This document shows positions 15,437 through 51,928 of a stretch of 64,000 bases of DNA, in pieces. This DNA comes from Ignavibacteria bacterium. GTDB taxonomy: Bacteria > Bacteroidota > Ignavibacteria > UBA10030 > UBA6906. The notes beneath the pieces were generated by a model. The model saw only the letters and a program-made list of their open reading frames with translations, was not told the DNA's origin and did no database searches. How positions within the stretch are numbered: the stretch's first letter is position 1; every line of letters begins with the position of its first letter. The position numbers and the translations under genes are program-made. Location: contig PSMW01000001.1 of assembly GCA_040290295.1 (NCBI GenBank), forward strand, positions 79,298-143,297, written 5' to 3'.

Positions 15437-15703
15437 ATGGCAATAGATAAAATTGGGTTTGGGCGGCCGCTTGTGCCTTCCTCCGAGAACCCGAAAAACC
15501 GAGAATCACACACCGGGTCGCCTGATGCAAAGGATACGGTGCAGCTTTCCGGCGAAGCGCTGAAGCTCTTTGCTGCGGCGAGAGCGCAACGTCTTGCCGA
15601 AATCCAAGAACGAGTGCGGACAGGGTTCTACGATCGTCCAGAAATAACGGAAAAAGTGGTGGAAGGCTTGCTGCGCGACATCAAGCGCCCACCGACGGCA
15701 TGA
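15437..15703 (+). CDS. flgM: Anti-sigma-28 factor FlgM
   Basis: 88 aa. DTVQLSGEA...RLAEIQERVRTGFYDRPEITEKVVEGLL matches the FlgM C-terminal sigma-28-binding region (D.V.lS...v..ik..I..G.Y.v). Confidence 0.75.
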   Translation: MAIDKIGFGRPLVPSSENPKNRESHTGSPDAKDTVQLSGEALKLFAAARAQRLAEIQERVRTGFYDRPEITEKVVEGLLRDIKRPPTA

Positions 15704-15842: not shown

Positions 15843-16511
15843 TTGAAACCAGAAAAAAGAATCTCCATCCTCGTTGCCGATGATCATACCATCGTTCGGA
15901 GCGGTATCGTTTCTCTTCTTTCGTTGAACCAAGAATTCGAGGTCGTGGGGCAAGCGGAGAATGGGCGAGAGGCAGTGGACCTCGCGCTGAGCAAACACCC
16001 CGATGTTGTGATCATGGATATCGGCATGCCAATTTTGAACGGGTTGGAAGCGACGCGGCAAATCAAGAAGCAAGCTCCCGATGTGAAGGTGCTCGTCCTC
16101 TCCGGTTACGATAACGATGAATATATCCTCCAAATGATTCAATGCGGTGCGAATGGCTATATCCTCAAGAATAGTTTTCTCGAAGATCTTTACGCCGCGA
16201 TTCGAAGTGTGCATAATGGTCAAGCGTTCTTCAGCCCGGCGGTATCGAAGATCATTATCGATAGCTACGCCACTCGGCCCGATGGACTCGCCGGCAAGAA
16301 ACCCACACGCCTATTAACGCGACGAGAGAGAGAGGTTCTTCAACTCATCGCCGAAGGTCATCTTCACGCCCAAATTGCTGAACGCTTGGGCATCAGCGTC
16401 CGCACCGTCGATACACATCGTCAGAATATCATGAAGAAGTTGGACATCCATGATACCGCAGGATTGGTAACGTATGCGATAAAGCACGGCATCGTCATCT
16501 TGCAACGTTAG
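15843..16511 (+). CDS. NarL/FixJ (LuxR-type HTH) family response regulator
   Basis: REC motifs ILVADDHTIVRSG, VVIMDIGMPILNG and VLVLSGY, plus a C-terminal LTRREREVLQLIAEGHLHAQIAERLGISVRTVDTHRQNIMKKL. TTG start. Confidence 0.9.
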   Translation: MKPEKRISILVADDHTIVRSGIVSLLSLNQEFEVVGQAENGREAVDLALSKHPDVVIMDIGMPILNGLEATRQIKKQAPDVKVLVLSGYDNDEYILQMIQCGANGYILKNSFLEDLYAAIRSVHNGQAFFSPAVSKIIIDSYATRPDGLAGKKPTRLLTRREREVLQLIAEGHLHAQIAERLGISVRTVDTHRQNIMKKLDIHDTAGLVTYAIKHGIVILQR

Positions 16512-16733: not shown

Positions 16734-18398
16734 ATGACTACAGCGACGAGTAGTGCTTCGGTTTCAAGCTCAGAGCAGACTTCGAGCATCATCCGCGTTC
16801 TCGCCGTTGATGACATGCCCGAGAATCTTCAGTTGTTGCGTGAGGTGCTCGCCGGACACGGCTTCGATGTTCTTGCGGCTTCTTCGGGGGAAGAAGCGTT
16901 GCGTCTTCTCGAACAATCACTCATTCATCTGATCGTTGCCGATGCAATGATGCCCTCGATGGATGGATTCCAGCTTTGCCGCGAAGTCAAGCGACGTCCA
17001 TCCTTAGCATCCATCCCTTTTATCATCTACACGGGGCATTATGTGGATGTCGAAGATCAAGAGTTCGCCAAGACCATCGGCGTGGATGCGTACGTGATGA
17101 AATATGACGGGCTTGCAACTCTACTCCAAACCATAGATCAACTCCTCCGGCAACGCTATGGATCTTCGAGCGAACTGACTGCGCGCGAGGAAGCGGGGGT
17201 GCCGCCAGAGGAGGACGAGCTTGCTTTCTTGCAACGTCACCACGCGCTCATCGTCAAAAAGCTCGAGGAGAAGATGCACGAGTTGGAAGTGTATGCCGAA
17301 ACCCTCGCCCGAAAAAACCGCGAACTCCAGGCATCCGAATCGCGCTATCGCAATCTCTTTGAACATGCCAGCATCGGGATTTTCATTCTCGACAAAGCAA
17401 CCGGTGCTCTGTTGGATATGAATGCCGAAGGCCTTTCGCTTCTCGGCTACTCTCGTGACGAAGTGCTTGCGCTTCCGCCACTTTCGTTTGTTGAAGATAA
17501 AGCGACCGCCAATTCCATTTTGCAAAGCGGAGCGTTCTTTTCCAAAGAGACACTGTTTCGTCGCCGTGATGGCGGGCTTGTGGAAGTGGAGCTTGCCGTG
17601 GGTCCATACGAGGAACAGGGCGATAGGAAACTTGTGCTCTATGCGTTGGATATTACCGACCAGAAGAAAATGCGGCGACACTTGCTTCAATCAGAGAAGA
17701 TGGCATTCATGGGCCGGCTTGCCGCGAGTATCGCGCACGATATTCGCAACCCGCTCGCGGCTATAACCCTTAACCTTCAGTATATCGCCAAACGGTTGCC
17801 AGCGGACTTCTCAGAGAAGGCAGCGCTTGATTTCGCAATCGAAGGAGCACAACGGATCAGCAAAATCGTCGAGAACACCCTGAGTCTCGCTCGCATCGCT
17901 CCTCCCATTGTGCGCTTGGAGGATATCAATCCCATCGTGGAAAAGGCAATCCGATTTCTTGATACGCAAATTGCACAAAAGCACATCACGGTTGAAACGG
18001 ATTTTGCCCCTAACCTCCCGAAGGTGAACGTCGAAGCAAAACAGATTGAGCAAGTGGTGTTGAACCTCGTCCAGAATGCGATTGACTGCACCCCGGAAAA
18101 CGGAACGATCAGTGTCTCGACATGTTTGATCGAGGACCTGAAAGCTCCTGCGGGTGCCAACAGCCAGCGGGTAGCGGTCGTGGTGCTCGATCGCGGTCCC
18201 AGCATCCCACCGGAGCAATTGCGCCATCTGTTCGAGCCGTTCCACACGACGAAGGTCGGAGGGACGGGGCTTGGGCTGGCACTCTCGAAACAGATTATGG
18301 ACAAGCATCGCGCAGAAATTCGCATCGAGCCGGCGGTTGGTGGGGGAACCATTGCCCGGCTGATATTCCCAGTTGTTCAACAATCCAGCGGAGACTGA
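16734..18398 (+). CDS. Sensor histidine kinase with N-terminal receiver and PAS domains (REC-PAS-HisKA-HATPase)
   Basis: REC: VLAVDDMPENL, LIVADAMMPSMDG. PAS: SESRYRNLFEHASIGIFILD. H-box: LAASIAHDIRNPL. ATPase: [33 protein letters not shown]. Confidence 0.9.
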   Translation: MTTATSSASVSSSEQTSSIIRVLAVDDMPENLQLLREVLAGHGFDVLAASSGEEALRLLEQSLIHLIVADAMMPSMDGFQLCREVKRRPSLASIPFIIYTGHYVDVEDQEFAKTIGVDAYVMKYDGLATLLQTIDQLLRQRYGSSSELTAREEAGVPPEEDELAFLQRHHALIVKKLEEKMHELEVYAETLARKNRELQASESRYRNLFEHASIGIFILDKATGALLDMNAEGLSLLGYSRDEVLALPPLSFVEDKATANSILQSGAFFSKETLFRRRDGGLVEVELAVGPYEEQGDRKLVLYALDITDQKKMRRHLLQSEKMAFMGRLAASIAHDIRNPLAAITLNLQYIAKRLPADFSEKAALDFAIEGAQRISKIVENTLSLARIAPPIVRLEDINPIVEKAIRFLDTQIAQKHITVETDFAPNLPKVNVEAKQIEQVVLNLVQNAIDCTPENGTISVSTCLIEDLKAPAGANSQRVAVVVLDRGPSIPPEQLRHLFEPFHTTKVGGTGLGLALSKQIMDKHRAEIRIEPAVGGGTIARLIFPVVQQSSGD

Positions 18399-18403
18399 GC
18401 ACT

Positions 18404-19831
18404 ATGTCCAAGGGAAGAATTCTTGTCGTTGATGACGAACGGATCCTTACTGAAAGTCTGCAGAACATTCTCACCTCCTCCGGCTACACCGTGAATACAT
18501 GCCTGAGCGGTGAGGAGTTTTTACCGATGGTACAGACGGTCAATCCCGATCTCGTGCTGTTGGACATCTTCATGGGGGACGTGAACGGCTTGCAACTTTT
18601 GCGCAAGATGAAGGAAGAAGGGGACGATACACCCGTGCTCATGATGACGGCGCACGCCGATGTTGCGCTGGCGGTCGAGGCGATGAAGGAGGGCGCGGTC
18701 GATTTCGTGCTGAAGCCGTTCGACCTGTCTCATCTCAGTGTGCTCATCGAAAAGTCCATGGAGCAATCTCGCCTGAAGCGCAAAGTTGCGTTACTCCAGA
18801 GCGAACTGGAAGAGCAGCGTGCCCGGAGCGGCATCATCGGCAGAAGCGCTTCGTTGCGTCGCACATTGGAAACGGCGGAAAAACTTGCGCAGACGGATAC
18901 CACTGTTCTCTTAGAAGGAGAAAGCGGAACAGGGAAGGAATTGATCGCACGATTCATCTACCAGAGAAGCGCGCGTGCCGACAGGCCGTTCATCACGGTC
19001 AATTGCGGTGCGATTCCCAAAAATCTCGCCGAGAGCGAGTTTTTTGGATACGAAAAAGGAGCATTTACCGGCGCTACGGACAAGATGCGACAGGGGAAAT
19101 TCGAGCTTGCCAACGGCGGGACAATCTTCCTCGACGAAATCGGTGAGCTGTCGCTCGACATGCAGGTGAAATTGCTCCGCGTGCTGGAAGACCATCGGTT
19201 CTATCGTTTAGGCGGAACGCGGGAACTGACGGTGGATGTTCGCGTCATTGCTGCATCGAACAGAGACCTTGCCAAGGAGGTTGAAGCGGGACGTTTTCGC
19301 GAGGACTTGTACTACCGGTTGAACGTCGCGCTCGTGAAGATTGCTCCGCTGCGCGAACGCGAAGAAGACATTGCGGTGATTGCGTACGCGTTCTTACAGG
19401 AGTTCAGTAAGAAATTCAACAAAGATGCGCCGAAGCTTTCCGACGATGCGCTCACGCTCTTACAAAGCCTGCCATGGAAAGGGAACGTGCGTGAATTGCG
19501 CAACGCGATCGAGCGCGTCGTCCTCTTGCATAACGGTCCTCTGCTGACCGCTGAACATTTTTCGTTTCTCTCCCAAGCGCATGAGAAAACACCCAACGGA
19601 CAATCGGCATCGAATACCTATCGTTTAGAGATTCCGCCGACAGGTGTAACGATGGCGCAAGTGGTACGCGATCTCATTCTCAAAACTCTGGCTTTGACCA
19701 ACGGCAATCAGGTGCACGCGGCAAAAATCCTGGGCCTCACTCGCTCGAAGTTGCGCTATCGCATGGACCAGCTTGGGATTCATCCCGAGCAACGAAGCTA
19801 CACGGTGCTCACAGACCGGGCGCTAACGTGA
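18404..19831 (+). CDS. Sigma-54-dependent (NtrC/FleR/FlgR-type) response regulator: REC + AAA+ + Fis-type HTH
   Basis: [28 protein letters not shown], Walker A GESGTGKE, sigma-54 contact loop EKGAFTGA, and a C-terminal [23 protein letters not shown] 18404 lies 6 nt after the kinase stop; the ORF-track start at 18122 is an upstream extension overlapping the kinase. Confidence 0.92.
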
Positions 19832-22391: not shown

Positions 22392-22739
22392 ATGGGCAAA
22401 CTGAATTTAGATCAACTTCAAGCCGGTATGGTACTGGCAGCCGACGTTGTTGATCGTAACCATCGTGTGCTGCTCAAAGCGGGCATCGCACTGACCGAGA
22501 AACATCTTACGGTCCTTCGCCAATGGGGAATCACCGAAGCGGATATTCAGGGAGTCACTCGAGAGGAACTGAACGCGCAAGAAAGTGTGGAACTGGACCA
22601 AGACCTTCTCGCTCACGCTGAGACGTCGTACCGTGAGTTGTTTCGGCATGCCGATATGCAGCACCCCTTCAATCAAGAACTGATGCGCTTGAATGTGCTT
22701 CGCACGGTGCAACGAACGATGAGAGGGCTTGAGTCGTGA
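22392..22739 (+). CDS. Small regulatory-domain protein resembling the N-terminal domain found on HD-GYP proteins (DUF3391-like)
   Basis: MGKLNLDQLQAGMVLAADVVDRNHRVLLKAGIALTEKHLTVLRQWGITEADI follows the L.pGMvLa.dv.d..g..Ll.aG..lt...i..L pattern. GTGA overlap with the downstream HDOD gene. Family assignment is from memory only. Confidence 0.5.
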   Translation: MGKLNLDQLQAGMVLAADVVDRNHRVLLKAGIALTEKHLTVLRQWGITEADIQGVTREELNAQESVELDQDLLAHAETSYRELFRHADMQHPFNQELMRLNVLRTVQRTMRGLES

Positions 22740-23578
22740 TTACCGGACCGAACGATCTGCTGAAAGGTTACGTCGAGGTTGCTTCGCTTCCCACGGTCTT
22801 TGCTCGGATCAACGAAGCAGTGAACAACCCGCGCTCGTCGATGCATGAGATCGGGAGGATCATCAGCGAGGACGCAGGACTCACCGCCCGCTTGCTCATG
22901 TTGGTCAACAGCGCCTTCTTCAGTTTGCCGCAACGCATCGATTCAATCACCCAAGCCATCACGATTGTAGGGACGCAGCAGTTGCGCGACCTTGCACTGG
23001 CAACGTCGGTAATTAAGCTCTTCAAGGGGATTCCATCGGATTTGGTTGACATGGAGCGGTTCTGGAAACATTCTATCGGCGTCGGCATTGCCGCACGGAC
23101 GCTGGCAGCGTATCGTCGTGAACCCAACGTCGAACGTTTCTTTGTTTCTGGTATTCTGCACGACATCGGTCGCTTGGTGATGTATATGAAGATTCCCGAT
23201 CTCTCTCGGACAGCGTTGGTGCGGACAAGGGAGAACAACGAGTTGCTCCACGTTGCCGAAGAGCAGGTAATCGGGTTCGATCATGCTGCCGTGGGCAGAG
23301 CGTTGATGCAGAACTGGCGTTTGTCGGTTTATCAAGAAGAGGTAGTCGCTTTCCATCATCGTCCGGAGTTGGCAGGACGATTTCCGGTGGAGACCGCCAT
23401 CGTGCACACGGCGGACATCCTTGCCCACAGCATGGGCTTGGGAAGCAGTGGTGAGCAATTCGTTCCGCCGCTCGATGCCGCGGCGTGGGAGCGTTTGGAG
23501 TTGCCTGTGAGCGTCTTGGCGCCGACACTCGATCAGATCGACCGCCAATATGCCGAAGCAGTCAAACTGATTCTGTGA
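22736..23578 (+). CDS. HDOD domain protein
   Basis: [62 protein letters not shown]...[12 protein letters not shown]...[11 protein letters not shown] is the standard HDOD layout. Confidence 0.85.
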
Positions 23579-23591
23579 AGAGGAATCGGTA

Positions 23592-25835
23592 ATGGAGCCA
23601 GCATCCATGCGAAGACATACCGGTCCTCTTCCCCCTGAAGTCGTCCAGGAGATCGAACGCTTAGAGTCGCGCATCCGATATCTTGAGGAAATTAATCGGA
23701 TGAACCTCGATGCCCTTAACATCGTTGTTGCCATGGGCGACCGCTACACGACCTCGCGTTCGGATTGGGATGCCCACCACATTCTGACAGCGACACGAGA
23801 CTTTGCGTCTCGTCTCGTCAACTTTGAGACGGTAGCGTACTATATGGTGGATGAGGAAACCGGCGAGTTCACGCTCAGAGAGTGCATTCCGGCAGAGCAT
23901 GCAGATTCCGTTCGTGATGAGATTGAATACCAAACCCGTCAAGGGATGTTCGCGTGGGCATTGAACCAACACCGTGCGGTAACGGTGCAAAGTGTGGAGG
24001 AAGGAAGAAGTGTGGTACTACACGTCATTGCTACGCGCGAACGCGTCCATGGAATGTTTGTCGGTTTGCTTAAGGGGAACGGGGGACAGGTTGCCGACGG
24101 TTCGCTCAATCTGCTTTCTATTCTTCTCATCATCACCGCGAGCGCACTGGAGAACGTTGCACTCTACTCGCGCATCAACGAACAGAACCGCCAACTGGAA
24201 GAAACGGTACAGGAACGGACACTCGAGCTGCAGAAAGCGCTGCGCGACCTTCAAGCAGCGAGTGAGGCGAAAAGCCAATTCCTTGCAAACATGAGTCATG
24301 AGATCCGCACGCCGATGAATGGCGTGTTGGGATTGACGGAACTGCTTCTGGATACCCATCTCGACTCTGTCCAGCGCGACTATGTCGAGACCATCCATTC
24401 CAGCAGTGAAGCGTTGCTCACGATCATCAACGACATCCTGGACTTCTCCAAAATCGAAGCGAGGAAATTAACATTGGAACATGTACCGCTCGATGTGCAC
24501 AAGCTGCTCATCGACTGCGTCGGTCTCTTCAAGAAACGAGCAAACGCAAAACGCGTGTCGATCGAAACCATTGTGCAACCGGATGTTCCTCTCTGGGTCA
24601 TTGGCGACCCGACCCGTCTTCGGCAAATCATCACCAACGTTGTCAGCAATGCAGTGAAGTTTACCGACGAGGGAACAATCACCGTCCGCGTCGCATGCGT
24701 TGTTCTGACTGATCGGGAGACCACGCTGAAGTTCTCCGTGACCGACACCGGGATCGGTATTCCCGAAGAGGTGCAGCGAGAACTCTTCCAGCCCTTCACT
24801 CAAGCTGATGGAAGCACAACGCGGAAGTACGGTGGAACAGGACTGGGACTTGCGATCTGCAAGCAGTTGGTGGAATTGATGAGAGGAACCATTGGGGTAG
24901 ACAGTGTGCCGCGGAAGGGCAGCACGTTCTGGTTTACCGCAGTATTTGAACGAGGAACGGGATATGAGGCAGCATCAAACGGACGAACCTCTCGAACAAC
25001 GCGCGAGGACAAACTCCCGGAGGGGATTCGCATTTTGCTGGTGGAGGATAATGCGGTCAATCAAAAGGTTGCGACGAAGATGTTGCAGAAGTTTGGGTGT
25101 GTTCCCGACGTCGCCAGCAACGGAAGAGAAGCGCTCGAAGCGGTTCAGCGTACCCGCTACGATGTTGTGCTGATGGATTGCATGATGCCGGAAATGGATG
25201 GCTTCGCCGCAACGCAAGCGATCCGTGCTGATGAAAATGGTGAACGCCGCGTGCCCATCATCGCGATGACGGCAAGCGTACTGCAGAGCGAGCGCGAGCG
25301 GTGTTTTCAGAGCGGCATGGATGCATACATCACCAAGCCGATCCGAGCGGATGTGTTGTTCGATACCATCATGCAGTGGATTCCCAAGCCGACGCACAAG
25401 TCCGTCCCAACGGCGAATATCGAGCAGGTGCCGGAGATACGCAGCGTGCCGACGGACTCGCTCGATGGTGTACTCGATTCGAAACGTTTGCAGGAGTTGG
25501 ATGAGTTGGGCGATCCATCGTTGGTGGTGGAGTTATTTCAAATGTTTCAGCAGGACGTGCCGCAGCAGCTTGGGGCACTACGCGATGCGATTGCCTCCCA
25601 AGATGCACCCGCCGTGCAGTTGATTGCCCATACCATCAAAGGGGGGAGTCGCAATATCGGCGCGCAGCAACTGGCAGCATATTGTCAGACGCTCGAAACC
25701 TCGGCAAAAGCAGGCAATCTTGCAACAGCCTACGAACTCTTGCAGAGCATTGAGAATGAGATATCGAGAGTGCAACAAGTAATCGAGCAATACCCACATC
25801 AGGCAGCAAAGGATCATGAAAATTCTCACGGCTGA
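23592..25835 (+). CDS. Hybrid sensor histidine kinase (GAF-HisKA-HATPase-REC-Hpt)
   Basis: GAF-like N-terminal region. H-box [18 protein letters not shown]. ATPase [58 protein letters not shown]. Hpt [12 protein letters not shown]. Confidence 0.92.
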
Positions 25836-26391
25836 CGACGACACCATCTCACGGCGTGTTTTGACCGCAGCGCTCAAATCCTTCGGTCACGAGGTCGTGG
25901 AAACCCGCGACGGGGCTGACGCTTGGGCAGAGTATCGAGTCAATCACTATCCGCTGGTCATCTCCGACTGGATGATGCCCAACGTGGACGGTGTTGAATT
26001 GTGTCGGCGGATTCGCACCGACCAGAGACCGAAGTACACGTACGTCATCCTGCTGACCTCACTGGAGGGAAAAGAAAAGTATCTGGAGGGCATGGAAGCA
26101 GGGGCGGACGACTTCATCAGCAAGCCCTTCGATAGAGACACCCTTCTTGCCCGTATCCGCGTTGCCGAACGGATTCTCGCCTTGCAGGCGGAAGTGAAGC
26201 AGTTGGAAGGCTTGCTTCCTATCTGCGCCTACTGCAAGAAAATCAAAGACGACGCAAACCAGTGGCAGCACATGGAAACCTACATCTCTCACCGCACCGA
26301 AGCGAACTTCTCTCACGGTATTTGCCCTGACTGCTACCAGAAGCACATGGTGCCGCAGTTGCAACAACTCCGCAAAGCGCATAGCGGTTGA
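25816..26391 (+). CDS. Response regulator: receiver domain plus C-terminal Cys/His-rich (double CxxC) tail
   Basis: REC: [32 protein letters not shown]. Tail: [44 protein letters not shown]. Overlaps the hybrid kinase gene by 20 nt. Confidence 0.85.
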
Positions 26392-46802: not shown

Positions 46803-47634
46803 TCAAGCGACACGATTGCGCGAAATAGCTGAACGGTATTGTAGCCGTCCCGCTGGGATACGACCGCACACGATTGCAGTTGCCAGCGGCAAAGGCGGTG
46901 TGGGGAAAAGTACCGTGGCACTCAATCTTGCCGTGTTGCTTGCGGCAAACGGCGCCGCAACGCTGCTGCTCGATGCGGATGAAAATCTCGGCAATCTCGA
47001 CGTGATGGCCGGTGTAGCGCCGAAACACCGTCTGGGCAGCGTGCTCTCGGGTGAGCGCGATGTACACGACGTGCTCGTCCCGTTGAGCGAACGGCTTGCC
47101 CTCCTTCCCGCCGATTCCGGCAGTACCGACTATCGGCAGATGACGATCGAGCAGCAGCGAACACTGCTCAATGAAATTGCCGATCTCGAACAGCGCTTTG
47201 CGTATGTGGTGATCGACACGGCGGCGGGTCTCGGCACCGACGTGATCGGCTTTGTCGTCCGTTCGGACGAAGCCATCATCGTCATAACGCCGGAGCCGAC
47301 TGCTGTCATGGATGCATACGCACTCATCAAATTGGTGACTGCTGCCGATCCGATGGTGCCGTTGAGGGTGGTGATCAACAATGCACGCAGTGCGGGGGAA
47401 GCTGAAGAAACCGTTCGAAAGCTCCAAACAGCAGTGCGACATTTTTTGAAACGCCACGTGCACTTTCTCGGCTCTATTCCAGCCGATCCGCACATTGGCA
47501 AAGCGGTCGTGCAGCAGACACCTGTGGTCAAAGCATTTCCGTTGTGTCATGCCTCGCTCTCTCTCAGCGCGTTGACGGAGACGGTGATGGAGCAAACCGA
47601 GCGCACACGCGGAAGGAGATTCGCAACCGTATGA
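46795..47634 (+). CDS. flhG: MinD/ParA-type flagellar number regulator FlhG (FleN/YlxH)
   Basis: N-terminal FlhF-activating motif LDQATRLRE, the deviant Walker A IAVASGKGGVGKSTVALNLA, and VIDTAAG. Directly after flhF. Confidence 0.9.
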   Translation: MLDQATRLREIAERYCSRPAGIRPHTIAVASGKGGVGKSTVALNLAVLLAANGAATLLLDADENLGNLDVMAGVAPKHRLGSVLSGERDVHDVLVPLSERLALLPADSGSTDYRQMTIEQQRTLLNEIADLEQRFAYVVIDTAAGLGTDVIGFVVRSDEAIIVITPEPTAVMDAYALIKLVTAADPMVPLRVVINNARSAGEAEETVRKLQTAVRHFLKRHVHFLGSIPADPHIGKAVVQQTPVVKAFPLCHASLSLSALTETVMEQTERTRGRRFATV

Positions 47635-47876
47635 ACAAACTGATATTTCAAATCGGCATTCTTGGGTTCTGCATTTCGGCGGTCGTCTTCGGATCAAGCG
47701 GCGCGACGCTGCTGGAGATCGTTAGCCGTTCGTTCCTCGTGTTCGTCGGCATCGTCCTCGCGTTCGTGGTGGTACTGATCGTGAGCAGCGCGATGATCGA
47801 AAACAACGAGAAACACCAGCAGCCCAAGAACGACGCCGACGTGAAGCCACCGACAACAGCCCAGCAGCATCAATAA
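47631..47876 (+). CDS. Small two-TM hypothetical membrane protein between flhG and fliA
   Basis: MNKLIFQIGILGFCISAVVFG...LVFVGIVLAFVVVLIVSSAMI followed by a polar tail. ATGA overlap with flhG. GGAAGGAG RBS. Confidence 0.5.
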   Translation: MNKLIFQIGILGFCISAVVFGSSGATLLEIVSRSFLVFVGIVLAFVVVLIVSSAMIENNEKHQQPKNDADVKPPTTAQQHQ

Positions 47877-47889
47877 GGAAGCGTACGCC

Positions 47890-48654
47890 ATGCCGATGAC
47901 GCAACGAGAACAGTCGCATGATAAGTTGTGGCAGAACTATTTACGGACACAATCAGCCGAAGCGCGCAAGGCGTTGGTCAAGGAATATGTAGGATTGGTA
48001 AAATTCGTTATCAGCAAATTTCGGAACAACGCACGGCAATCCACGTCGGTCATCGACGAAGACGATTTGCTGCAAATCGGCATGATGGGGTTGTTGGATT
48101 CGATCGACCGCTTCGATCCGACGCGAGGAGTGAAGTTCGAAACGTATGCCATCACGCGCATTCGCGGCACGGTGCAAGACGAACTGCGCAAGCTCGATTG
48201 GGTGCCCCGCTCTGTGCGGGAGAAACTGAGAACGATCGATCGTGTCACGCAGAAGATCGAATGCACGCAAGTCCTCAGCACATCCGCGAAACGCATTACA
48301 CGCGAGCTTGCCATGACGCTAGATGAGTATATGACGATGGTGCGCGACGTGCAGATCGGCGTCCCCGAAGTCGTCGGGCAACACAATCAGGGCGAAGATG
48401 TGTTGGACGACCTCACGGCGGAAGATGACGCCGACCCTTCTGAGCGGGTGGCAGAGGACCAAGTGAAGGAGATGGTGGTACGAATGGTCGAAAATCTTCC
48501 GCCGCAAGATAAACTCATCATCTCCTTGTATTACTACGAGGAGTTGACGTTCAAAGAGATCGCCGGCATCTTGCATTTGTCGGAGTCGCGTGTCTTCCAG
48601 CGGCACGCCACCATTCTCGAGCGCTTGCGAGACCATGCCGGCGAATTGGTATGA
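47890..48654 (+). CDS. fliA: Flagellar sigma factor sigma-28 (FliA)
   Basis: Region 2: DDLLQIGMMGLLDSIDRFDPTRGVKFETYAITRIRGTVQDELRKLDWVPRSVR. Region 4: LPPQDKLIISLYYYEELTFKEIAGILHLSESRVFQRHATILERLR. Confidence 0.93.
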   Translation: MPMTQREQSHDKLWQNYLRTQSAEARKALVKEYVGLVKFVISKFRNNARQSTSVIDEDDLLQIGMMGLLDSIDRFDPTRGVKFETYAITRIRGTVQDELRKLDWVPRSVREKLRTIDRVTQKIECTQVLSTSAKRITRELAMTLDEYMTMVRDVQIGVPEVVGQHNQGEDVLDDLTAEDDADPSERVAEDQVKEMVVRMVENLPPQDKLIISLYYYEELTFKEIAGILHLSESRVFQRHATILERLRDHAGELV

Positions 48655-48709
48655 AGCATACCGCAACCTGACGAGCAACGCACATAAGGACACAGAGGGG
48701 GATTGCACC

Positions 48710-48994
48710 ATGAAACACGTCCACGAGCAGGAAAGGCAAGTCAACCCGATCATGATGATGCCGGAAAATGTGTGGAAGGAATACATCAGGCCCAAGACGA
48801 GCTTGTTCGATCAGGTGGAGAACTTGCCGTACGACGAAAAGCTTGTCCTCGCACTTCATTACTACGAAGGTTTGTCCTTTGCCGAGATTGGTTTCTTGAT
48901 GGGTATGAGTGCATGGGATGCGGCAGCACTCCATGCCGATGCCCTGACCACGTTGCAATCAAAACTTCACGAGATTTTCAAGAGCGAGGAGTAG
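48710..48994 (+). CDS. Stand-alone sigma-70 family region-4-like protein (paralog of FliA region 4), 94 aa
   Basis: QVENLPYDEKLVLALHYYEGLSFAEIGFLMGMSAWDAAALHADALTTLQSKL aligns with FliA MVENLPPQDKLIISLYYYEELTFKEIAGILHLSESRVFQRHATILERLR. No region 2 or 3. An AGAGGGGG RBS sits before ATG 48710. Confidence 0.65.
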   Translation: MKHVHEQERQVNPIMMMPENVWKEYIRPKTSLFDQVENLPYDEKLVLALHYYEGLSFAEIGFLMGMSAWDAAALHADALTTLQSKLHEIFKSEE

Positions 48995-49870
48995 ATGTTG
49001 TCTCCCGACTTTGTACGCGATAAGGTTCAAACGATCATTCAACTTCCCACACTCCCCACTGTTGCGCAGGAGGTTGTCGAGTTGGTCGATAACCCCCGTA
49101 CGTCTGCCTCTCGGTTGGGGAGGGTGATCGAATCCGATCAAGGGCTAACCGGCAAAGTGCTGAAGATCGCGAATTCGGCTTTCTACGGATTTCCTCGGCA
49201 GATCGCGACTGTGGACTTTGCGATCATCGTACTCGGCTTCGATGCCTTGAAGGAGATCGTGATCAGCATTTCGTTGGTCAGTGCGTTGCAAAAGAAGAGC
49301 GATGTGCCCTTCGACGCGCGCGGCTTCTGGGATCATGCCGTCTACAGCGCGGTGATTGCTCGCCGGCTTGCACGCGATCTTGGCTATCGGGTCAGCGGCG
49401 AAGTGTTTGTCGGCGGATTGCTGCACGATATGGGCATCTCGGTTCTGCATCAACATTTCTGCAAGGAGTATCTTGCGATGGTCTCGACCGTGGAGGCACA
49501 GCAGATCCCGTTCTTGGACGCAGAAAAGGAAGTGCTCGGCGTGACACACGCACAGGTTGGCGGTTGGCTTGCGGAACGATGGAACTTCCCGAACCACTTG
49601 GTGGAAGCCATCAGCATGCATCATACGCCGCTCGCAGCGAAGGAGAACCCTGAACTGGTCGGTATTATTCACTGTGCGGATGTGTTGGCGAACCGATTGT
49701 GCAAGCGCCCAATGTTGTTCGATGCAGGCTTGGATTTCCAACCGGACGTTCTTCAACGCTTGGGTTTGGGCGATCCGCTCGTTCTCGAACAATACATCAC
49801 GACGTATCGTTCGATCATCGACGCGGATATGAAGCAGTTCGACACGATGTTCAGTTCGGTAAAGGAGTAG
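48995..49870 (+). CDS. HDOD domain protein (second copy)
   Basis: LPTLPTVAQEVVELVDNPRTSASRLGRVIESDQGLTGKVLKIANSAFYGFPRQIATVDFAIIVLG, FWDHAVYSAVIARRLA, GLLHDMGISVL. Confidence 0.85.
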   Translation: MLSPDFVRDKVQTIIQLPTLPTVAQEVVELVDNPRTSASRLGRVIESDQGLTGKVLKIANSAFYGFPRQIATVDFAIIVLGFDALKEIVISISLVSALQKKSDVPFDARGFWDHAVYSAVIARRLARDLGYRVSGEVFVGGLLHDMGISVLHQHFCKEYLAMVSTVEAQQIPFLDAEKEVLGVTHAQVGGWLAERWNFPNHLVEAISMHHTPLAAKENPELVGIIHCADVLANRLCKRPMLFDAGLDFQPDVLQRLGLGDPLVLEQYITTYRSIIDADMKQFDTMFSSVKE

Positions 49871-49874
49871 GACG

Positions 49875-51257
49875 ATGCAGGCAGCCGAACAACATTCGCG
49901 AGTTCGTATGAACCGCCTCCAATTGCTCGACGCCCTGGCGCCGCAATTCGAGTCGTTCATGGAGAGCCGCGAGCAGTATATTAAAGCACTCGAAGAAACG
50001 GTCGCGCTGCTGAAGCGAGCAAATCTTCAAGCCTCCGAAAACAATCGCGCCATCCGTACCACGATCGACGAGCTGATGGCGATGCAGCAGCTCTCCAACA
50101 GCATCAGCACCGCGCATGAACCGGAGGCGATCGTCTCGACACTCATCCACTTGACGCGGCAAGTGTTGCCCGTCATCGAGTCGAATATTTTCCTTTTCGA
50201 AGGGAAACCGCAGCGCCTCGTTCCACTCTCGACAAAATGTTCGGCTGCGTTCGTGGAAGAAGCGCAAAAGCATGTCGAGGCGGGCATCGTCGATTGGGTG
50301 ATCGCCGAACAGCGCACAGTGATTTTCCCCGATATCGAGTCTATGGGCGCCAGCGGGACGAAGAACATCCTCGTGATTGTTCCACTCATCATCCGCAATG
50401 AAGCGATCGGGATCTTCATGATTCGCTCGCCGAAATCCCACGCCGAGATCGCCAACCACGACATCCAACTCTTGACTGTCCTGGCGAACCAAGCCGCCGT
50501 GGGTGTCGAAAACTGGCGCGCCTTCGAGAAGGTCGTTGCGCTGAACAAGGAACTGCAAGCCTCGCAGGCGCAAACCATGCATGCCACCAAACTTGCTGCA
50601 ATCGGGGAACTGGCGGCAAGCATCGTTCACGAAATCAAAAATCCGATCCAAGTCATGGTCATGCACATGGAGATGGTGCAGCGCGGCAAACCGCTGCCGC
50701 ATTGGACGGACACCGTCGCGAAGCAAGTGAAGCGTCTCAGCGAAATTACTCGCCGCCTCATGAACTTTTCGCGCAACGTTGCCGACGAGCCGCGCATGGA
50801 CGAAGTGCAGATCAACCAGCCGATCGAAGAAACCGTGGCGATGGTGGAGCATGAGTATCGCATCAACAACATCGACATCGTCACGGATCTGAAGGAAGAC
50901 TTGCCCCCCATTGTTGCGAACGCGGGTGCATTGCAACAAGTGTTCTTGAATCTCCTCATCAATGCGCGCGATGCAATGCCCAACGGCGGAACAATCACCA
51001 TACGTACAGAATCTTCCGGCTACTACGTGGTGGTGAAGTTTGCCGATACGGGCACGGGGATCGCCCAAGAACATCTCGACAAGATCTTCATGCCCTTCTT
51101 CACTACGAAGCCTGAGGGGCAAGGAACGGGCCTCGGGCTATCCATCTGCCGAAAAATCATCAGTGAACACAAGGGCGCGATAAAGGTGGAAAGCGAAGAT
51201 GGCAAAGGAACGACATTCAGCATTTTTCTCCCGATGCTGAGGAGGTTACACCGATGA
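49875..51257 (+). CDS. Cytoplasmic sensor histidine kinase with GAF-like input domain
   Basis: GAF-like region (EPEAIVSTLIHLTRQVLPV...LIIRNEAIGIFMI). H-box LAASIVHEIKNPIQV. ATPase LLINARDAMPNGG, DTGTGIAQEHLDKIFMPFFTTK, GTGLGLSICRKII. Confidence 0.88.
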   Translation: MQAAEQHSRVRMNRLQLLDALAPQFESFMESREQYIKALEETVALLKRANLQASENNRAIRTTIDELMAMQQLSNSISTAHEPEAIVSTLIHLTRQVLPVIESNIFLFEGKPQRLVPLSTKCSAAFVEEAQKHVEAGIVDWVIAEQRTVIFPDIESMGASGTKNILVIVPLIIRNEAIGIFMIRSPKSHAEIANHDIQLLTVLANQAAVGVENWRAFEKVVALNKELQASQAQTMHATKLAAIGELAASIVHEIKNPIQVMVMHMEMVQRGKPLPHWTDTVAKQVKRLSEITRRLMNFSRNVADEPRMDEVQINQPIEETVAMVEHEYRINNIDIVTDLKEDLPPIVANAGALQQVFLNLLINARDAMPNGGTITIRTESSGYYVVVKFADTGTGIAQEHLDKIFMPFFTTKPEGQGTGLGLSICRKIISEHKGAIKVESEDGKGTTFSIFLPMLRRLHR

Positions 51258-51928
51258 AGACCGGTCCGACATCCGTTCTCGTGCTGCTCGCCTGCGCCGC
51301 TTGTGTCCGTGCAGAAGAACCGACTACCGCGCGCCGGATCGTGGACCCCATCATCGATGTCCGTGCTTTGGTTCGTGGTGAGATGGAACGAGCGCACCAC
51401 GCGCTGCAACGCGAGGCGGCGTCTCCGATGCCGATGGCGCACCTCCATGTTGGGATTTTCTTTTTCGCTGCCGGCGTCTCGCTGCTGAGTACGTCGATGT
51501 TGCTGTGGGTTCTCTTGCGTCGCAAGCGGAGGGATGTGTCGATGGCACCGCTTCGTTCGTTGCCGGCAACAATGCAGCCGCCTCGCACGGATCCAGTGGA
51601 TGCACTCTTGAAGCAGGCAGCATTGATTCTTCGTGAAAAGCGCGCTGCACATTCCCCGCGATCGTTCGCGCCTGTCGATGAAGAGGTGAGCGGAAACGTC
51701 GGGCTTGCGCGTACGTTTCAACGCGGGAAGGGAGAGTTGGCGTTAGCGCAGAAATGTGAAGCGGCCGGCAAGACCTATCCGTGGGAGAAGAAACTTCGCG
51801 AGGGCGCGGCGCTGAACGTGATTGCTGAAGGCTCTCCCCTTGCCGCAAAAACATTAGGGATCGGCACGGGCGAGATGCACCTCGTGCACTCGCTACGCGC
51901 ACTGCAGAAACAACATCAGAGGAGGTAA
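51254..51928 (+). CDS. Hypothetical secreted/membrane protein
   Basis: Signal-peptide-like N-terminus MKTGPTSVLVLLACAACVRA and one central TM (VGIFFFAAGVSLLSTSMLLWVLL). ATGA overlap with the kinase gene. No recognised family. Confidence 0.45.
   Translation: MKTGPTSVLVLLACAACVRAEEPTTARRIVDPIIDVRALVRGEMERAHHALQREAASPMPMAHLHVGIFFFAAGVSLLSTSMLLWVLLRRKRRDVSMAPLRSLPATMQPPRTDPVDALLKQAALILREKRAAHSPRSFAPVDEEVSGNVGLARTFQRGKGELALAQKCEAAGKTYPWEKKLREGAALNVIAEGSPLAAKTLGIGTGEMHLVHSLRALQKQHQRR

Follow-up and report, generated by a model that had tools for sequence, protein, structure and literature searches.

What does region 4 of sigma-28 do when it stands alone, beside the gene for the complete sigma factor? 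In the classical view, sigma-28 (FliA) is controlled by FlgM, an anti-sigma factor that is removed by secretion. In a 64,000-nucleotide stretch of DNA from an Ignavibacteria bacterium (contig PSMW01000001.1, positions 79,298 to 143,297; hereafter the window, whose numbering is used throughout), the fliA gene (47890..48654, + strand) is followed by a short open reading frame (ORF) at 48710..48994 on the same strand. Its 94-residue product is a stand-alone, acidic, degenerate sigma-28 region 4 (sigma-4) domain. Here we report that this ORF is a real gene, that the residues for contact with promoter DNA have been replaced while those equivalent to FlgM contacts are kept, and that sister lineages carry a related domain fused behind an HDOD domain. 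If a dedicated, conserved region 4 mimic is encoded next to fliA, sigma-28 would be under an additional control within the cytoplasm, one that might respond to a signal.

A region 4 domain without the rest of FliA

The ORF extends from an ATG at 48710 to a TAG at 48992-48994, starting 55 nucleotides beyond the fliA stop (48654). A Shine-Dalgarno-like sequence read from the DNA, AGAGGGGG (48694..48701, + strand), lies 8 nucleotides ahead of the ATG. An earlier reading of this DNA (the original prediction) had pointed out the same ORF just after fliA, with a good ribosome-binding site and a start 56 nucleotides after fliA, and had taken it for a stand-alone paralog of sigma-28 region 4. That description now finds agreement from BLASTP, from Pfam, and from structure prediction with AlphaFold2 (AF2) and Foldseek.

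BLASTP aligns residues 36-90 of the ORF without gaps to residues 200-254 of window FliA (21/55 identical, or 38%; 32/55 similar; E 3e-10), bearing out a gapless C-terminal alignment in which about 19 identities over 44 positions had been counted by eye. FliA itself is complete: its 254 residues match Pfam models Sigma70_r2 and Sigma70_r4, and its region 4 is intact (TFKEIA...SESRVFQRH). The Pfam scan of the ORF returned region 4 models only: Sigma70_r4 (PF04545; 27.0 bits, cut-off 24.1) and Sigma70_r4_2 (PF08281; 28.5 bits, cut-off 25.7). Neither region 2 nor region 3 was matched in that scan, as had been anticipated, and the YlxM/p13 family (UPF0122; PF04297) gave no match at E up to 1. The best NCBIfam matches are the C-terminal ends of WhiG and FliA models. 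Against one of these, FliA_WhiG (TIGR02479), the ORF scores 33.4 bits, far under the cut-off of 189.6; window FliA scores 205. FliA and WhiG are also the top sequence matches in the PDB. Because the best sequence matches are FliA and WhiG, an origin from FliA is assigned: the 94-residue ORF is a FliA-derived region 4 domain, without regions 2 and 3.

The AF2 model, built with 35 homologs, has a predicted local distance difference test score (pLDDT) of 90 and a predicted template modeling score (pTM) of 0.78. It comprises four helices (residues 19-35, 41-51, 57-64, and 68-92) plus a short ordered amino-terminal segment. The top 42 Foldseek matches in the PDB are all sigma region 4, as are nearly all of the 50 listed, with probability 1.0 and TM-scores (on the target) up to 0.85. 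Structural neighbors include sigma-28 (also in complex with FlgM), WhiG, extracytoplasmic function (ECF) sigma factors, and PhyR.

A conserved gene in a fixed slot

A search of 5.8 billion proteins identified 35 homologs, here termed the mini family (78-99 residues; 56-100% identity). In an alignment of these sequences 22 columns do not vary at all, among them W69 of what was once the recognition helix; at least 90% of members have D70. The start codon, length, and ribosome-binding site also are conserved. Among ten loci, synonymous sites are mostly saturated, nonsynonymous divergence (dN) is 0.06-0.48, and the ratio of nonsynonymous to synonymous divergence (dN/dS) is 0.06-0.26 for non-saturated pairs. 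The ORF is a real gene under purifying selection.

The family is narrow. In a HMMER search of 1.84 billion cluster representatives it forms one 50%-identity cluster (E 1e-44), joined by a single divergent stand-alone form, P0036 (95 residues; E 1e-18). Carriers, sought in a single scan of a genome collection with patterns specific to the mini form, are metagenome-assembled genomes labeled Ignavibacteriales, Ignavibacteriota, "Chitinophagales", or "Bacteroidota".

Candidates for a wider family of short FliA-like proteins were set aside. Matches of 70-140 residues (at about E 1e-18 and about E 1e-10) keep an intact T/SESRVSQLH and, judged by that sequence, are fragments or mis-called WhiG or FliA genes. 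(Many metagenome entries of this size are named "FliA" and have an intact TESRVSQLH, some on contigs of hundreds of kilobases. Their appearance is that of actinobacterial whiG genes that were split or given a wrong start, and they can be mistaken for stand-alone region 4 proteins.) Two further loci, L011 and L012, were dropped as short forms; both encode full-length FliA. A separate observation is P0183 (305 residues), in which an SRP54-type GTPase domain precedes an intact FliA region 4 (SESRISQLH). This is either a real Ffh/FlhF-sigma4 chimera or an artifact of assembly or gene calling.

Is the gene tied to fliA in other genomes? The original prediction had proposed a survey, and the answer is uniform. 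In 16 of 16 related loci (15 if the near-duplicates L001 and L002 are counted once), as in the window, the position directly after fliA is occupied by a gene for a sigma-4 protein, here called the slot gene. The usual order is flhB, flhA, flhF, flhG, a gene for a small membrane protein, fliA, the slot gene, a gene for an HDOD-domain protein, a GAF-HisKA-HATPase histidine kinase gene, a gene of unknown function, flgF, and flgG. The HDOD gene lies directly 3' of the slot gene in every locus examined (in L017 the short contig holds only its first 30 residues), and the GAF kinase gene is syntenic in every locus that extends far enough, in both cases with one exception, the rearranged locus L009. 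There, fliA and the mini gene have relocated as a pair, which no longer adjoins the HDOD gene and kinase and sits beside a hybrid kinase gene and a receiver gene, with unrelated genes after it. Because the fliA-mini pair persists in L009 with no HDOD gene or kinase of this kind adjacent, the link to fliA is the most constant one.

In the window, the HDOD protein (48995..49870, + strand; 291 residues; Pfam HDOD, E 4.7e-64) is followed by the GAF-HisKA-HATPase kinase (49875..51257, + strand; 460 residues; assigned with Pfam). The sigma-4 TAG directly abuts the HDOD ATG (48992-48997), with a gap of 0 nucleotides and in the same frame. A zero gap occurs also in L004 and L005; other loci have gaps of 3-12 nucleotides and other frames. 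Across the eight loci in which the HDOD start was identified, the gap thus ranges from 0 to 12 nucleotides, the relative frame is not constant, and each of the three stop codons is used, which speaks against readthrough of the stop codon into the HDOD gene. Because frames and stop codons vary, the arrangement points instead to translational coupling, and the sigma-4 ORF probably is coupled to the HDOD gene in this way. Nothing resembling a promoter or a terminator was seen between fliA and the sigma-4 ORF, or between that ORF and the HDOD gene; the ORF probably is co-transcribed with fliA.

Loss of the DNA contacts

Can this domain still recognize a -35 element? In the initiation complex formed with Escherichia coli sigma-28, the residues K208 and R220 touch the -35 element (10.1101/2020.01.02.893370); in Pseudomonas aeruginosa sigma-28, S224 and Q228 make base-specific contacts (PMC12784957). 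Residue numbering was checked on the PDB chain alignment, where the chain index equals the native number plus 5 and all quoted identities match. K208 of E. coli (K213 of P. aeruginosa) corresponds to A58 in the mini protein; S224 of P. aeruginosa to W69; R220 of E. coli (R225 of P. aeruginosa) to D70; and Q228 of P. aeruginosa to A73. None of these mapped contact positions is conserved in the mini sigma-4, and no slot protein, mini or fusion, has arginine or lysine at the R220 position. By comparison, SESR..Q is kept in all seven FliA proteins compared.

The original prediction had noted that the FliA recognition helix (SESRVFQRH) is replaced in the ORF by SAWDAAALH. The replacement is real and is conserved throughout the mini family. 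Among the HDOD-fused proteins described below, the recognition helix differs from one protein to the next, and the EWDA motif of the mini family is absent. Charge follows the same trend: the slot sigma-4 cores have isoelectric points (pI) of 4.1-5.1, with one exception (the neutral fusion domain of P0051, pI 6.9), whereas FliA cores have pI values of 6.8-9.7. Because the DNA-contact residues are lost and the domain is acidic, a protein-binding role is far more likely than DNA binding, as had been proposed; the alternative then offered, that the product competes for -35 elements, is not supported.

The same domain behind HDOD

The HMMER search of cluster representatives, which was exhaustive, returned five longer proteins among the next-best matches after the mini family: P0038, P0051, P0110, P0116, and P0172 (342-365 residues). 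Each has an amino-terminal HDOD domain and a carboxyl-terminal region 4. A later search added another HDOD-sigma4 protein, P0185 (367 residues). Wherever the context is readable, these fusions lie exactly in the slot, with fliA on one side and, on the other, the separate HDOD gene and the kinase gene. Those placed by context are P0038, P0110, P0116 (whose locus holds another copy in tandem), P0185, and a frameshifted copy on a long-read contig (L021); P0051 and P0172 are grouped with them by their architecture, which is the same.

Profile comparison with hhalign places the mini family closer to the fusion sigma-4 domains than to FliA, since the mini family scores 134 (E 3e-26) against fusion sigma-4 and 92 (E 8e-18) against FliA sigma-4. 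(Fusion sigma-4 against FliA sigma-4 scores 121, E 1e-24.) The window ORF has the features that mark the slot: its product is a FliA-type sigma-4, degenerate and acidic, and its gene comes immediately after fliA, with the HDOD gene and GAF kinase next in line. The shared slot and the closeness of the profiles together identify it, at the level of sequence, as the stand-alone form of an undescribed HDOD-sigma4 family.

The ORF itself contains no HDOD domain, and the 55-nucleotide spacer after fliA leaves no room for a remnant of one. Only 28 residues precede the region 4 match, and the hhalign alignment to fusion sigma-4 begins at K29. Those first 28 residues gave no hhalign alignment to the fusion linker; a by-eye match of W22 to a conserved phenylalanine in the linkers is unproven.

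For the fusion P0110, AF2 returned a model with pLDDT 82 and pTM of only 0.60, and an interface between the HDOD and sigma-4 domains was not obtained. Structural matches to the HDOD portion of this model are 3HC1, SadB, and Cj0248. In P0110, HN (LLHNVG) stands in place of the HD motif and HT in place of HH; HD and HH are retained by the other fusions and by the window HDOD protein. A degenerate metal site may be limited to some of the fusions. Finally, L018 (6481-8555), like L019, has two tandem HDOD-sigma4 genes (343 and 349 residues) between fliA and the stand-alone HDOD gene, making three HDOD domains in a row.

Residues for FlgM contact are kept

FlgM of P. aeruginosa binds region 4 through seven residues: L187, I191, L200, A203, L204, Y206, and L210 (PMC12784957). 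The L204R substitution weakens FlgM binding about 190-fold, from 2.2 to 422 nM (PMC12784957). Mutants with L187R or L204R show almost normal motility, and the authors conclude that these residues are not involved in binding DNA or RNA polymerase (PMC12784957). The equivalents in the mini protein are L32, V36, L45, A48, L49, Y51, and L55: six of the seven are identical and the seventh is conservative. A48, L49, Y51, and L55 are invariant in 35/35 members of the mini family. A48, L49, and Y51 are invariant also in the seven fusion domains, in which the L55 position is leucine in six and valine in one. The invariance of L49 is informative because its counterpart, L204, is not needed for folding or RNA polymerase binding in P. 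aeruginosa.

The window also contains a probable FlgM, judging by its gene context and hydrophobic pattern. The 88-residue product of 15437..15703 (+ strand), the proposed target of the sigma-4 protein, is encoded after fliD, flaG, and a FliT-like ORF. Its top Pfam match is FlgM (PF04316), below threshold (E 0.031; 14.9 bits, cut-off 25), and it has no NCBIfam or PDB sequence match. By eye, residues L53/I56/V60 and V74-V75..L78-L79 have the spacing of the P. aeruginosa FlgM residues that contact sigma-4.

A decoy for FlgM?

These features suggest a model in which the sigma-4 protein is a sigma-factor mimic that titrates FlgM, perhaps under control of the HDOD protein and kinase. An FlgM decoy was among the options offered in the original prediction, and the keeping of all seven FlgM contacts strengthens it. 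We favor this model tentatively, as a possibility a little short of probable; it is by inference that it names a ligand, gives the regulation a direction, and assigns any role to the HDOD protein or kinase. FliA and the mimic would be made together. The mimic, without DNA binding, would retain the hydrophobic groove that FlgM uses on sigma-28, and would bind FlgM or another ligand of the same groove. Capture of FlgM would leave more FliA free, making the mimic an anti-anti-sigma factor, as PhyR is for NepR and sigma-EcfG. In the window lineage, the separate mimic would act together with its neighbors, the HDOD protein and GAF histidine kinase, or be under their control; sister lineages have this domain fused behind an HDOD domain.

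Several observations weigh against this model. FlgM normally grips three sigma domains at once, and an isolated region 4 may for that reason be too weak a ligand to compete. The hydrophobic residues may owe their conservation in part to folding, or to binding to the beta flap of RNA polymerase. The remodeled surface of the recognition helix (E68-W69-D70-A71, and H75) is strongly conserved within the mini family, which suggests a second contact surface on the mini sigma-4, one for which a simple FlgM decoy would have no need. The FlgM candidate, besides being sub-threshold, lies 33 kilobases from the sigma-4 ORF. Finally, the amino-terminal motif of the mini protein (NPIMxMP..VW.EYI) is modeled with high confidence and is unexplained.

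If the decoy model is correct, sigma-factor mimicry would extend to a group 3 sigma factor. We know of such mimicry so far only from PhyR. A broader version, which we consider doubtful, unites fliA, the mimic, and the HDOD and GAF kinase proteins in a new partner-switch that acts on sigma-28 from within the cell. When the HDOD protein or the kinase senses a signal, the mimic, either as a free protein or as part of an HDOD fusion, would capture FlgM. Export of FlgM through a completed hook-basal body then would cease to be the sole determinant of FliA activity. Such a switch would take sigma-factor mimicry beyond the PhyR/ECF system for the first time, and would give the HDOD domain a defined output. 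The fusions in any case offer a concrete candidate partner for the HDOD domain, whose mechanism stays unclear.

Other binding partners, and other fates

Might the ligand be the HDOD protein itself? The sigma-4-like domain could be a partner or output module of the HDOD protein and GAF kinase, binding the HDOD protein (in the fusions, perhaps within a single chain) so as to modulate their pathway or serve as an adaptor, and contacting neither FlgM nor RNA polymerase. HDOD and sigma-4 are, after all, fused in sister lineages; the genes for their separate forms stand 0-12 nucleotides apart in eight loci; an HDOD gene followed by a GAF kinase gene occurs twice in the window; and the conserved EWDA surface could contact HDOD. 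Moreover, the HDOD protein SadB is an adaptor for proteolysis of AmrZ (PMC12075610). But locus L009 keeps the fliA-mini pair with neither an HDOD gene nor the kinase adjacent, and the EWDA motif is absent from the very proteins in which the two domains are joined. Nor does a partnership with HDOD account for the use of a domain that derives from FliA and has its FlgM-contact residues intact. The HDOD protein could equally regulate a mimic that captures FlgM, so the two ideas are compatible; as a full account, the HDOD partnership appears unlikely.

On RNA polymerase, region 4 domains in isolation are able to bind the beta flap, the site that phage T4 gp33 occupies. A free sigma-4 might therefore dock on the flap-tip helix, where it would hinder assembly of sigma with core enzyme or replace the sigma-4 of FliA, and so damp or re-tune transcription. 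The retained fold and hydrophobic core are in keeping with this, and the lost DNA contacts would suit a non-productive occupant. A block at the flap, however, would be felt by every sigma factor, an outcome hard to square with the strict linkage of this gene to fliA, and the invariant L49 corresponds to a P. aeruginosa residue reported not to take part in RNA polymerase binding. Competition for the flap is, on these grounds, improbable.

One database name points in another direction. NCBI lists a member of the mini family as a "sigma factor-like helix-turn-helix DNA-binding protein", a generic label, and the helix-turn-helix fold is indeed present, as a small DNA-binding regulator of new specificity would require. 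Mini family members, however, carry a net charge of -2 to -12 (pI 4.4-6.0); the mapped DNA contacts all are replaced, one by an invariant tryptophan and one by a near-invariant aspartate; and the recognition helix is variable among fusions. The charge and the loss of DNA-contact residues contradict such a regulator, which retains hardly any credibility.

Last, the ORF is short, adjoins its parent gene, and lacks the HDOD part found in sister lineages, as a partial fliA duplication or a decayed HDOD-sigma4 gene might, but the dN/dS values with saturated synonymous sites contradict a non-functional remnant, a negligible prospect also in view of the 22 invariant columns, the conserved start, length, and ribosome-binding site, and the confident AF2 model.

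Comparison with known systems

The closest functional parallel to the FlgM decoy model is PhyR of the alphaproteobacterial general stress response, in which a degenerate sigma-like domain, restrained by a receiver domain, captures NepR and thereby frees sigma-EcfG (PMC4598750). As in PhyR, a sigma-derived domain that lacks promoter-recognition residues and no longer is a sigma factor would act through protein binding. Its gene is linked to that of the sigma factor it would serve, and PhyR structures are among the Foldseek matches to the model. In sister lineages the likeness goes further: the mimic is fused to a signaling domain, with a histidine kinase gene alongside (PMC4598750). The two systems differ in that PhyR has sigma-2-like and sigma-4-like subdomains plus a receiver, whereas the window ORF has sigma-4 only; that the attached or adjacent domain here is HDOD rather than a receiver; and that the window mimic is a free protein of 94 residues.

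Region 4 of the FliA/WhiG sigma factors (1RP3 and 9WSF, with FlgM; 6PFJ, with RsiG and cyclic di-GMP) is the direct parent in both sequence and fold, and has the FlgM-contact residues in common with the ORF. The ORF differs from these sigma factors in lacking regions 2 and 3, in its replaced -35 contacts, in its acidity, and in falling far under the TIGR02479 cut-off.

HDOD proteins, including SadB of Pseudomonas, GsmR of Xanthomonas, and Cj0248 of Campylobacter, have been tied repeatedly to control of flagellar motility, and SadB works as a protein adaptor (PMC6543031, PMC12075610). The known HDOD proteins have YbaK or receiver partner domains and no sigma-4; conversely, the window sigma-4 ORF has no HDOD.

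Sigma functions are placed on separate small polypeptides in phage T4 gp33 and in the Bacillus split sigma factor SigO-RsoA. Unlike the present domain, gp33 is not homologous to region 4. The pieces of SigO-RsoA jointly form a working sigma factor, whereas the window has a complete FliA plus an additional domain that is unable to read DNA.

The sigma-4 domain itself is ordinary and generically labeled in databases, and sigma-factor mimicry has precedent. Three points appear to be undescribed in the literature searched: a region-4-only paralog tied to fliA; its equivalence to HDOD-sigma4 proteins; and the combination of lost DNA contacts with kept FlgM contacts. That literature contained no work joining HDOD with sigma region 4, and, beyond general reviews, none linking sigma-factor mimicry to FlgM.

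Neighboring genes

The gene between the kinase and flgF (51254..51928, + strand) encodes 224 residues without a Pfam or NCBIfam match. Its position is conserved: counterparts of 194-377 residues occupy the same place in related loci, at only 32-38% identity. On the other side of fliA, a small hydrophobic protein of about 80 residues (47634-47876) is encoded between flhG and fliA. It has no family match, and all related loci have a counterpart of 75-95 residues at the same place.

A second HDOD gene belongs to a set of genes at 22736-26391 of the window. It encodes 280 residues, 32% identical to the HDOD protein at 48995, and is followed directly by genes for a GAF-HisKA-HATPase-REC-Hpt hybrid kinase (747 residues) and a receiver protein (191 residues). 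The hybrid kinase and receiver just upstream of the fliA-mini pair in L009 resemble this set.

Two further regulatory loci lie near the FlgM candidate. A REC-LuxR regulator (15843-16511) is encoded just after it. At 16734-19831, a REC-PAS-histidine kinase gene precedes one for a receiver-containing sigma-54 activator, a pair that is FleS/FleR-like or FlrB/FlrC-like. A sigma-54 tier above FliA therefore probably operates in the host organism.

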